Shown here piece after piece: positions 32,350-41,589 of a stretch of DNA of 64,000 bases. Origin of the DNA: Octopus vulgaris (lineage: Eukaryota); NCBI GenBank assembly GCA_951406725.2, contig OX597823.1, positions 77,748,001 through 77,812,000 on the forward strand. The letters are read 5' to 3'. The translations under genes and the position numbers were made by a program. Below the pieces are notes generated by a model. The model was not told the origin of the DNA and searched no databases. It was given only the letters and a program-made list of their open reading frames with translations. Position 1 is the stretch's first letter. Each line of letters begins with the position of its first letter.

Positions 32350-32488
32350 CAGGCATGGCTGTGTAGTTATAATGCTTGCTTTCCAACCACATGGTTCCAA
32401 GTTCAGTCTCAATACATGACACCTTGGACAAATGCCTCTTATGATAGCGCTTGTGAGTGGATTTGGTAGTCAAAAACTGAAAGAAACT
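32350..32488 (+). mobile_element. SINE family A head
   Basis: caggcatggctgtgtagtt...aaccacatggttccaagttcagtc...gagtggatttggtagtcaaaaactgaaagaa, followed by the microsatellite holding the Penelope-like insertion. Confidence 0.82.
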
Positions 32489-32867
32489 GTGTATGTGTGT
32501 GTGTATGCGTGTATATCTATCTATCTATCTATCTATATGTCTATCTATCTATCTATCTATCTATATATATAGTTTATGAGTAACAATGAAGGGTGAAATT
32601 AATTAATTTGGAACAATTATCAATTACACCAAGTAGTCTTCGGCATGCAAAAGCCTCATTCGAGGAAAATTTAAGTAATACTAAGCAATTAAGGGTTTAG
32701 CAACGAATTGCCTTACCACACACCGAATTTAGAAATAGCAGTCAAAGAGATTATAGCTATTTCTTCTACTAAAAGGAGATCACAGTAAAGGCACAGCATT
32801 TGAAAGGCAAACACAAACAGGTAAAAGAGAATGAATTAACGGCAATCTATCATACAGTTTTAAGTCG

Positions 32868-32959
32868 CCTACGGACGTACGTTTCGAGATCAAGTCTTAG
32901 GAAAGCATAAGAATTAGATAACTCTACTTTACCCAGACTTCTTCTTTCATCAGCGCAGG
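32868..32959 (-). ncRNA. Type-I hammerhead ribozyme (copy 1)
   Basis: cctgcg|CTGATGA|long stem II|GAAAC-gtac-GTC|cgtagg on the minus strand. Confidence 0.78.
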
Positions 32960-33471
32960 ATACTAACAATCATGAATGATTGAATATTGAATTTTGAGAT
33001 ACTAGAAGGCACCAACTCAACTCAGTATCAGAGCGAGCTAGAAGCCACAGCTAGTATCACCAAATTCAAAGTATGAATGAAAGCTTGTGTCACCAGTCCC
33101 TTCCCACCCGCGTGTAGCCAAGACAAAGTGCTGTGGTCATTTACTGGGATGAATATGGTTTATGAGTAACAATGAAGGGTGAAATTAATTAATTTGGAAC
33201 AATTATCAATTACACCAAGTAGTCTTCGGCATGTAAAAGCCTCATTCGAGGAAAATTTAAGTAATACTAAGCAATTAAGGGTTTAGCAACGAATTGCCTT
33301 ACCACACACCGAATTTAGAAATAGCAGTCAAAGAGATTATAGCTATTTCTTCTACTAAACTTTGAATTTGGTGATACTAGCTGTGGCTTCTAGCTCGCTC
33401 TGATACTGAGTTGAGTTGGTGCCTTCTAGTATCTCAAAATTCAATATTCAATCATTCATGATTGTTAGTAT

Positions 33472-33563
33472 CCTGCGCTGATGAAAGAAGAAGTCTGGGT
33501 AAAGTAGAGTTATCTAATTCTTATGCTTTCCTAAGACTTGATCTCGAAACGTACGTCCGTAGG
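33472..33563 (+). ncRNA. Type-I hammerhead ribozyme (copy 2, inverted segment)
   Basis: Stem I cctgcg/cgtagg, CUGAUGA 33478-33484, GAAAC 33546-33550, palindromic ACGUACGU stem III, GUC site 33555-33557. Confidence 0.78.
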
Positions 33564-34821
33564 TGACTTAAAACTGTATGATAGATTGCCGTTAATTCAT
33601 TCTCTTTTACCTGTTTGTGTTTGCCTTTCAAATGCTGTGCCTTTACTGTGATCTCCCTTTTAGTAGAAGAAATAGCTATAATCTCTTTGACTGCTATTTC
33701 TAAATTCGGTGTGTGGTAAGGCAATTCGTTGCTAAACCCTTAATTGCTTAGTATCTATATATATATATATATATATATATGTTAATAAAATATATGCATA
33801 TATATAAACATATATGTACGTACCTACCTCTACATGTACATATACACGCATATATGTGTACAGGACACCAAAAAGACGTCGAACACATAGAGAGACGAAA
33901 AACATAGACACAAACCAAGGAACAAGACAGGCAAAAAAAAGAGAGATACAGGACAATAAGCACAATGAAAAATCCCCTTCTTATATATATATATGTATGT
34001 ATATATGTATGTATGTATATATATACACACACACACAAATAAAGCATTTGTGTATTAAGGCTACCATTGGTTTTGTGCTAAGAAAATATCTCAACAATTC
34101 TTCAAGCTGATCACACAGAAAAATTGGTGTTCATCTCCATTTCAGATTAAACATGAAACTAATGATAGCCTTAATACACAAAGAACCTTTATCCACCAAT
34201 GCTGTATTGAGCACACATCTTTATTGTTCAGCATTTACACTTATATATATGTTTCATATATATATATATTGATTGATTGATTGATTGATTGATTTATATG
34301 TGTGAGTGTGTTTATAACAATGTGTAAATCTTTGTGTGTGTTTGAGCCCCATAAGGAACAATTTTAGATTACACCAACTCTTTCATACTTTAAACGTATA
34401 TTGGTCTGATGTAACAGGTGCCAGAGGTTCAATAGTTAATTGGAATGCAGGATCTGTATGGAGTTAACTTCTTTTACACAAGTAGCTAAAGAGTAGAAGG
34501 GCTTCATCTGTCCTTGGTCAACAGGGGTGTCTGTGTATGACCTTCTCCCAGAAGCAGTTCTGTGACATTTAAATTATCCCATAGCAAGGAACCTTACATG
34601 TGCCACTGCTCTAGGTCAGAGTTGACCAGGTGTCAGAGTATACATATTTGTATGCTAGTGTGTATGTACATATGTACATATATGCATGCATAGATATACA
34701 TACACACACACACACACACACATAAATACATCAGTACATATATACATAATCAGATACACGTGTTGGCAATGGAAGCATATAGTATATCTAATAAACATGT
34801 CTACATATCAACCTACCTATA

Positions 34822-40762: not shown

Positions 40763-41589
40763 TTTCAAAATAAAATGTAACTAATAGTAAGATGGAAAAT
40801 TATAATTAGGGTTCAGCAAAAATTGCTTCACCACATACCGAAATTTAGAAATAGCAGTTAAATACTATTCCACTACCATAAGATATCTCCCAGACAGTAA
40901 TACTCTCAACTCACGCAGGTAGTGTATATATAATACACTACTATGTATTACACACATCTTGATTTTCTCATCTAAATACTCTTAAAAACCTACAATACCA
41001 AATATAAGATGCAGTGTTAGACAACTACTACAAGATCTGGACAATCTAAGTCAATACATTACTTTTTAATATTATATTTTGTATTATATTTTATATATGC
41101 TGGTCTTGTGCCAAAATTTGAAACCAATATTATATTTTATATAAAATATATTGATATGCAATACAAAAAAAAAATGTAAGGTAAACTATTAAAGAAACTC
41201 TCTTATATAATTTAGATTTTTCTTAAAGATGTTGGTGAAGGAAAACCTTGGCAGACTAATACAGTTACATGCGTCACTTATTTTTAATCTGGATTTTGGT
41301 GAGAAAAATACACCTGCGTGTGTGTGTGTGAGTGTGTGTACATAGTAGTTTTTAGAATATGTAGACTACATCACTGCATGCAATAAGAAGCAATTAATAG
41401 AACTGGTCTCAAGAAGCGTGTCTGGGCACCGAAAACTCTGCCTCAAACTCTCTCATCCAATGCACGTAAGCAAGGAAGAGAAGACATACAATAATGATTC
41501 TATATATGAATATACATACACATATATATATTTGTGTATATATACAAACACATGCATATACATATACATATAAACACACACACAGGTGC

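Follow-up and report, generated by a model that had tools for sequence, protein, structure and literature searches.

The locus studied here raises the question of how a non-coding unit carrying a hammerhead ribozyme motif came to lie in tandem, and next to an inverted copy of itself, between two simple repeats: which enzyme wrote it into the genome, and from what form of RNA. It lies in a window of 64,000 nucleotides of the Octopus vulgaris genome (contig OX597823.1), by which we mean the whole stretch of DNA that was analysed. We consider it probable that the element is a recent insertion of a non-coding hammerhead family with two fixed end sites, written in trans by a Penelope-like enzyme with reverse transcriptase (RT) and GIY-YIG domains.

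Layout of the element and extent of the family

A BLAST search of the unit against the window re-traced an inverted-repeat-bearing element at 32572-33754, where the preliminary description had placed a tandem unit, a partial unit and an inverted copy. The main copy (32572-33157, unit 1-586; 586 nt, GC 37.9%) is followed by a head-to-tail partial copy of 202 nt (33158-33359, unit 1-202, 99.5% identity) and an inverted copy of 395-396 nt (33359-33754, unit 501 to 107, 99.5%), with one base common to the tandem partial and the inverted copy at their junction. The copies vary at exactly three sites (unit 77, an indel at 203 and unit 296), where about three differences had been noted before, and no open reading frame of more than 72 aa lies within the element, in keeping with the earlier reading that it has no RT or GIY-YIG frame. 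The (AT)n reported on both sides proves to be (TATC)n(TA)n to the left of the element and (TA)n to its right; both flanks being microsatellites of TA type, a target site duplication is unreadable at the element. The extra hairpins ascribed to the unit have their arms at 32987-33005/33051-33069 in the left arm and at 33362-33380/33426-33444 in the right arm. The features referred to below are:

32514-32571, no strand: left target microsatellite, (TATC)n(TA)n
32572-33359, minus strand: left arm of 788 nt (1.34 units), running in the RNA from unit 202 (5' end) to unit 1-4 at start site 2 (3' end)
32572-33157, minus strand: full non-coding unit; the RNA-sense strand is minus
32572-32677, minus strand: segment set against the 30-40 bp tail of Penelope-like elements (PLEs) in the available text of PMC8557442 and PMC11167929
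32575-32594, minus strand: start site 2 (unit 1-11) with a similar ACCCUU motif
32678-32696, minus strand: start site 1 (unit 98-111) with its upstream ACCCUU motif, the main 3' end of insertions
32868-32959, minus strand: type I hammerhead, cut predicted between 32874 and 32873 (unit 303 and 302)
32987-33069, minus strand: long imperfect hairpin, upstream of the hammerhead in the RNA
33359-33754, plus strand: right arm, unit 501 to 107; 3' end at start site 1 (unit 107), head-to-head with the left arm
33472-33563, plus strand: hammerhead of the inverted copy, its core beginning at 33478 and its cut predicted between 33557 and 33558
33755-33781, no strand: right target microsatellite, (TA)n

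Other repeats surround the insertion. A very abundant short repeat at 32350-32512, SINE-like by appearance and of very high contig depth, has the left microsatellite as its tail, and a dispersed repeat of high contig depth adjoins the insertion on the right (33782-33970), with similar sequence beside another family locus (L185). Outside any TA tract, a short 5'-truncated copy of a third sister family lies at 40799-40869; this sister resembles the site-1 end region (85% over 55-65 nt), and a copy of the same type was seen at L084:5592-5650. Parts of the unit are contained in 20 of 24 sequencing runs, none of them recorded as RNA. In four runs guessed to be RNA, the contigs extend over much of the element, chiefly as relatives of 90-95% identity, and none spans the inversion junction; strand, ends and circles are unreadable in them.

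The window element is a member of a dispersed family that occupies many contigs. In the 2.8 Gb genome (227 contigs), a DNA search with the unit gave at least 124 matches among the 40 scored of 1,811 candidates, exact pattern matching found 1,102 intact read-through cut-site junctions, and the 3' motifs common to sister families occur in 1,660 and 4,612 copies, with 0 for controls. We fetched 170 loci and merged them into 159 fragments for parsing, and then left out edge-cut hits, two duplicates at L106, hits below 58 nt and short sister-family fragments. Of the 132 insertions retained, 60 are one-armed, 66 two-armed and head-to-head, six complex and none tail-to-tail, and the longest arrays comprise 5.2 units. 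The sample combines the best-scoring loci with loci selected by hammerhead (contigs C1-C3) and by 3' motif (C1), and is therefore biased to long arms. The insertion signature of PLEs, a partial tandem with a head-to-head 5'-truncated copy, is present in 66 of the 132, and the initial view of a young non-autonomous hammerhead element with Penelope-type tandem and inverted insertions is borne out.

Tandems with inverted repeats are prone to misassembly, and at L106 one two-armed insertion has been triplicated locally, the copies lying about 2 and 7 kb apart. A DNA-level satellite, a local duplication and inversion or an assembly artefact might therefore be proposed; we give this reading almost no credence as an account of a family that is dispersed on many contigs, has fixed 3' ends, variable 5' ends and TA targeting, and is represented in the window by three copies differing at three sites. 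An artefact at the window element itself is unlikely because 66 separate loci have the head-to-head layout with different inner junctions.

Fixed ends, TA targets and the search for a coding partner

The outer ends of the arms, which correspond to the 3' side of the RNA, lie in one of two intervals: site 1, unit 95-127 with mode 107, and site 2, unit 1-20 with mode 4. The two sites are about 103 nt apart in the RNA, and both come after a similar ACCCUU motif. One-armed insertions end at site 1 in 54 of 60 cases. Were the arms of two-armed insertions to choose their sites in the same way, most pairs would have both arms at site 1; instead, 57 of 66 have one arm per site (p=2e-16 against 50:50), the remainder being one insertion with both arms at site 1, none with both at site 2 and eight with one arm ending elsewhere. 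The pattern recurs among 30 insertions on C1 chosen by their 3' motif alone, where 13 of the 15 two-armed ones are mixed, and a 575-nt sister family of 66% identity has an identical pair of ends. TA sequence lies on both sides of 57 of the 66 two-armed insertions and at the 3' end of 55 of the 60 one-armed ones. Inner ends are variable, and their joins range from 12 shared to 24 added bases, mostly within three.

These observations alter two points of the preliminary description. Copies are numerous genome-wide, but the circularly permuted insertions that it proposed to look for do not occur as randomly permuted monomers, since insertions have two fixed 3' ends; and the inverted 5'-truncated segment, while part of a Penelope-type inverted layout as described, appears as a second, separately primed arm. 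In four of the insertions displayed (L003, L005, L012 and L025) a G-to-A change at unit 7, in agreement with the TA tract, is confined to the terminal unit, a pattern that would be explained if the target primer had annealed with a mismatch. At L002:1440-2310, L057:3700-4370 and L011, the host sequence past the TA tracts forms an inverted repeat across the insertion (at least 39 nt in the case of L002 and 15 nt in that of L057), as would result if integration had copied the target DNA in inverted form.

A head-to-head inversion is also the product of L1-type twin priming on a linear RNA and of antisense self-priming fold-back (PMC3846280), and in 9 of the 66 two-armed insertions the inner ends lie at most 20 nt apart, as in a near-symmetric fold-back. 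Both readings are highly improbable here. Only one of 66 insertions has one arm stopping where the other starts, as twin priming predicts; 57 of the 66 junctions differ from fold-backs, and the antisense strand is without excess structure; and, against both routes, the two arms have sequence in common and fixed outer ends. Twin priming and general antisense fold-back are thus largely ruled out by the junction counts of 1/66 and 57/66.

A Pfam GIY-YIG search of the genome, in which 150 of 6,136 candidates were scored, identified a coding PLE family with a 781-aa RT and GIY-YIG frame that is open in many copies; the cysteine motif before the GIY-YIG domain (PMC8557442) would place it as Neptune-like. 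This family and two other coding PLE families end in (TA)n with or without an extension of 30-35 nt. The Neptune-like PLE has likely been active recently; copies at L094:3440-5782 (minus strand), L095, L037 and L042 have the 781-aa frame and, close to the 3' end, a minimal hammerhead-like motif, with or without a tail of about 33 nt.

A search of 14 PLE 3' regions gave no partner with the same ends, their local-alignment scores against the unit falling within the shuffled range; the autonomous PLE sharing its ends that had been suggested is thus missing from this set. BLAST of the unit against 15 GIY-YIG loci gave no similarity apart from an independent sister insertion, the loose end of an RNA contig used as a pattern had 0 genome matches, and among 206 sequences scanned no other element with an ACCCT-like motif before (TA)n was tied to an ORF. 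The absence of an autonomous partner from the 14 3' regions, together with a tail of about 103 rather than 30-40 nt, is evidence against the mechanism that we favour.

If the 586-nt unit were the pLTR of an ordinary coding PLE, the copies would be its 5'-truncated remains. Their tandem and inverted layout, tail and TA bias are as in coding PLEs (available text of PMC8557442), and the inspection covered part of the family; PLE fragments are present in some flanks of family loci, and at L061:2468-4149 a short AT stretch joins the site-1 end of a unit to an ORF, truncated at its 5' end, from a second PLE family with 65% identity to the 781-aa protein. This ORF, however, lies downstream of the unit and has an unrelated 3' end of its own. 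In the 210 loci checked with tblastn of the 781-aa protein (L001-030, L046-085 and L106-245), a search that may miss distant clades, no PLE ORF lies upstream of a unit and continuous with it; every inspected arm that passes the unit border continues as another unit, up to five times; and sister units of 66% identity are likewise ORF-less tandems. We therefore rejected the truncated coding PLE, which the preliminary description had named as the finding that would overturn its own reading, on the lack of a continuous ORF in the 210 loci, and consider it improbable.

Hammerhead, RNA strand and template

The predicted hammerhead comprises a stem I of 6 bp, a CUGAUGA core (32953-32947), a stem II of about 60 nt, GAAA and GUC, and a helix III of 2 bp set in an 8-nt palindrome. 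The full unit and the inverted arm have one each, as the single ribozyme ascribed earlier to each unit would have it; the 202-nt partial is without one. Rfam gave no match in the window at gathering score; the motif is nonetheless well above chance, because 454 exact cores occur genome-wide versus 1 for the reversed control, and sister units 575-601 nt long retain it even at 66% identity. In 13 diverse copies of our choosing there are 18 double-change cells, a number reached by 0 of 500 shuffles, and 89% of hammerhead cells are paired versus 17-42% in slid controls; covarying pairs number seven, which 25 of 500 shuffles reach, the shuffle ignoring relatedness.

In the window hammerhead an A.C replaces the G10.1-C11.1 pair. 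Among loci that match the window at 97.5% identity or more, 85 of the 97 cores share it, a count in which overlapping loci enter repeatedly. Loss of the G10.1-C11.1 pair would be expected to weaken cutting. The lowest-energy monomer fold lies 1.8-3.5 kcal/mol below the hammerhead fold, while the helix III palindrome of five variants self-pairs at -8.8 to -13.3 kcal/mol. A palindromic helix III, and a monomer for which the hammerhead is not the most stable fold, would fit the dimer-dependent hammerheads described, in the text available, for PLEs (PMC4209133, where the G10.1-C11.1 pair is given as highly conserved) and for amphibian retrozymes (PMC7229834). A pattern search also listed two arms of one insertion (C2, 75407471 and 75407895) with an identical 8-nt deletion; the deletion takes out the cleavage triplet and helix III, so that a ribozyme-dead template was apparently copied twice.

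The computed fold of the ribozyme-bearing strand is well below that of shuffles (z -6.1 linear, -6.5 circular), whereas the antisense fold has no excess structure (z -0.85, circular). The RNA of the main array is accordingly minus-stranded by ribozyme and by excess folding, a correction to the preliminary description. We take minus-strand RNA as the likely template: ribozyme and excess structure are confined to this strand, whose 3' side is also where the fixed ends lie.

The arms of one insertion stem from one source haplotype: they differ from each other at 147 of 23,919 sites (0.61%) and tandem units at 191 of 30,734 (0.62%). Nearest other insertions are 0.87% apart (585 of 67,435 sites), and the median over pairs of insertions is 6.9%. 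Of the 54 two-armed insertions whose arms have 60 or more sites in common, 48 have arms within 1.5% of each other, versus 8% of random pairs, and at 141 of 148 sites that vary inside insertions one allele is absent or single in close relatives. We infer in addition that the arms come from one RNA molecule. One molecule and one source locus are indistinguishable in these data because the nearest neighbour of a segment belongs to its own insertion in 49 cases and to another in 46, with 26 tied, and mixed units at L003, L006 and L151 count against the single molecule. In the four-unit arm at L151:1865-4302, the first-primed unit differs at 10 sites from later units that agree among themselves; this pattern is possibly a switch between two RNA haplotypes.

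Was the template always a 586-nt circle that the ribozyme had cut and that had then been ligated, with the enzyme rolling round it? Arms longer than one unit are common: 69 of 192 exceed 600 nt and six exceed two units, the longest having 3,036 nt, and at L020 six segments share three private variants and have a single variable site. In the motif-selected set, where numbers are small, the stop rate is roughly constant at 0.0024-0.0032 per nt from 200 to 1,200 nt, with no wall at one unit; in the whole sample, by contrast, it climbs from 0.0033 to 0.0053 between 600 and 1,200 nt. Mussel, coral and axolotl retrozymes form circles (PMC7229834, available text). On the other side, uncleaved RNA is the dominant PLE substrate in vitro and cleavage unnecessary (PMC11167929, available text); the window's subfamily has lost the G10.1-C11.1 pair and yet spreads; and units are mixed in L006 and L151. 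We therefore regard a template that was always such a circle as a serious reading that falls somewhat short of an even chance.

The arm ends around the cut site bear on the same point. The last matching base falls at unit 299, 300, 301, 302, 303 and 304 in 6, 11, 12, 11, 2 and 8 rows before cleaning, and in 5, 6, 8, 5, 0 and 3 arms genome-wide after point mutants, small deletions and local duplicates were dropped; rows with C at the last position were left out of the arm-end patterns. Within the 4 nt preceding the cut lie 24 ends, where between 6.5 and 20.3 would be expected depending on the background rate (p 1e-7 to 0.24), an excess of 1.2- to 3.7-fold; the 2 nt after it have 3 (p=0.008 for the two intervals compared), a difference that counts for the circle. 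The 24 ends are spread across the preceding 4 nt, no sharp pile-up being seen at the exact cut base, and peaks equally high occur among the sample arms at unit 210-213, 229-232 and 527-530. At L106 an arm ends 1 nt before the cut site. About 98% of copies that reach the cut site read through it. From the modest pile-up and the 1,102 read-throughs it follows that about 98% of templates were continuous, as ligated circles or as uncleaved multimers, which these data do not separate; the excess before the cut hints that a small share of templates was probably ribozyme-cut. Between an uncleaved multimer and a ligated circle as template we hold the balance to be about even.

In the mechanism that we favour, a Penelope-like enzyme acting in trans on minus-strand RNA would nick both strands of a TA microsatellite; the TA targeting is seen here, and the nicking is extrapolated from the anole PLE in vitro. 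Reverse transcription would start inside the RNA, at site 1 on one strand and site 2 on the other, as the observed end pattern suggests, possibly with a dimeric enzyme on one RNA. The cDNAs would stop at variable points and be joined head-to-head with none to a few shared or added bases, as the junctions have it, and one-armed insertions would be those in which only one start was fixed, mostly at site 1. The template would have been continuous across the ribozyme site and the unit borders, as the copies themselves are. A more specific form, in which one self-cut, re-ligated 586-nt circle feeds a two-armed insertion through a Penelope RT dimer with one look-alike motif per half, we consider doubtful. 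If true, hundreds to thousands of genomic copies would document an obligate one-site-per-strand rule together with rolling-circle copying of an animal retrozyme, moved by a partner without detectable shared sequence.

Comparison with known systems

By its sequence the element would be classed as an animal non-LTR retrozyme, a class that is already known. The available accounts of animal retrozymes describe, as here, non-coding tandems with a type I hammerhead per unit, GC below 50%, self-paired RNA and co-occurrence with PLEs. The 586-nt unit exceeds the 170-400 nt of PMC7229834 (Cervera and de la Pena 2020) and lies within the 51-972 bp of bioRxiv 10.64898/2026.07.22.740005 (Li, Clavereau and Pollet 2026), and stem II is about 60 nt long. 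Inverted arms, fixed ends and TA targeting do not figure in those accounts as available. Both papers propose PLEs as mobilisers of retrozymes. The enzyme has so far only been proposed, from co-occurrence and pLTR similarity; the PLE-specific tail at the insertion ends ties mobilisation to the PLE machinery by a mechanistic footprint.

In the text available, endonuclease-bearing PLEs (Penelope/Poseidon, Neptune and Naiad) form partial tandems together with a copy that is inverted and 5'-truncated, favour (TA)n, and can have a tail of 30-40 bp on one side only (PMC8557442, Craig et al., which also describes non-autonomous tandem elements); PMC3846280 (Arkhipova et al.) describes a 31-bp tail on one of two inverted pLTRs and proposes antisense self-priming. 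Partial tandem, head-to-head inversion, one-end tail and TA bias are all shared by the octopus family, as is the short palindromic helix III of the PLE hammerhead (PMC4209133). The two fixed ends bound what is the Penelope tail, at about three times its usual length. The octopus family differs in having no ORF, in its tail of about 103 rather than 30-40 nt and in its lack of a sequence link to the coding PLEs checked. The non-autonomous Chlamys element MRC1 of Chlamydomonas (PMC8557442, available text) is likewise ORF-less, PLE-dependent and multicopy head-to-tail, although elements of this type generally share 3' sequence with an autonomous family, a partner that was not found here. We found no description of the family, of a tail of about 100 nt or of one arm per start site in the literature, on which supplements may bear.

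The closest biochemical counterpart is the Poseidon element of Anolis (PAc). According to the available text of PMC11167929 (Frangieh et al. 2024), its protein is a predicted dimer which, on AT-rich DNA in vitro, nicks each of the two strands and extends both; two internal RNA start sites bound the tail, and mainly unprocessed RNA is used, ribozyme cleavage not being needed. The octopus family resembles it in its two internal start sites, the extension of both strands, the AT-rich target and a ribozyme that is mostly read through. In PAc both start sites are located within the beginning of the ORF and show no strand difference, so that the one-arm-per-site rule, here in a non-coding unit, is without biochemical precedent there. 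Since the retrozyme class and its PLE link are already in print, the gain is a well-counted case and a useful mechanistic footprint, not a new system. Open PLE questions, namely the origin of the inverted arm and whether cleavage and circles matter, become testable in the existing in vitro assay through the long tail, the rule of one arm per site and the 98% read-through.
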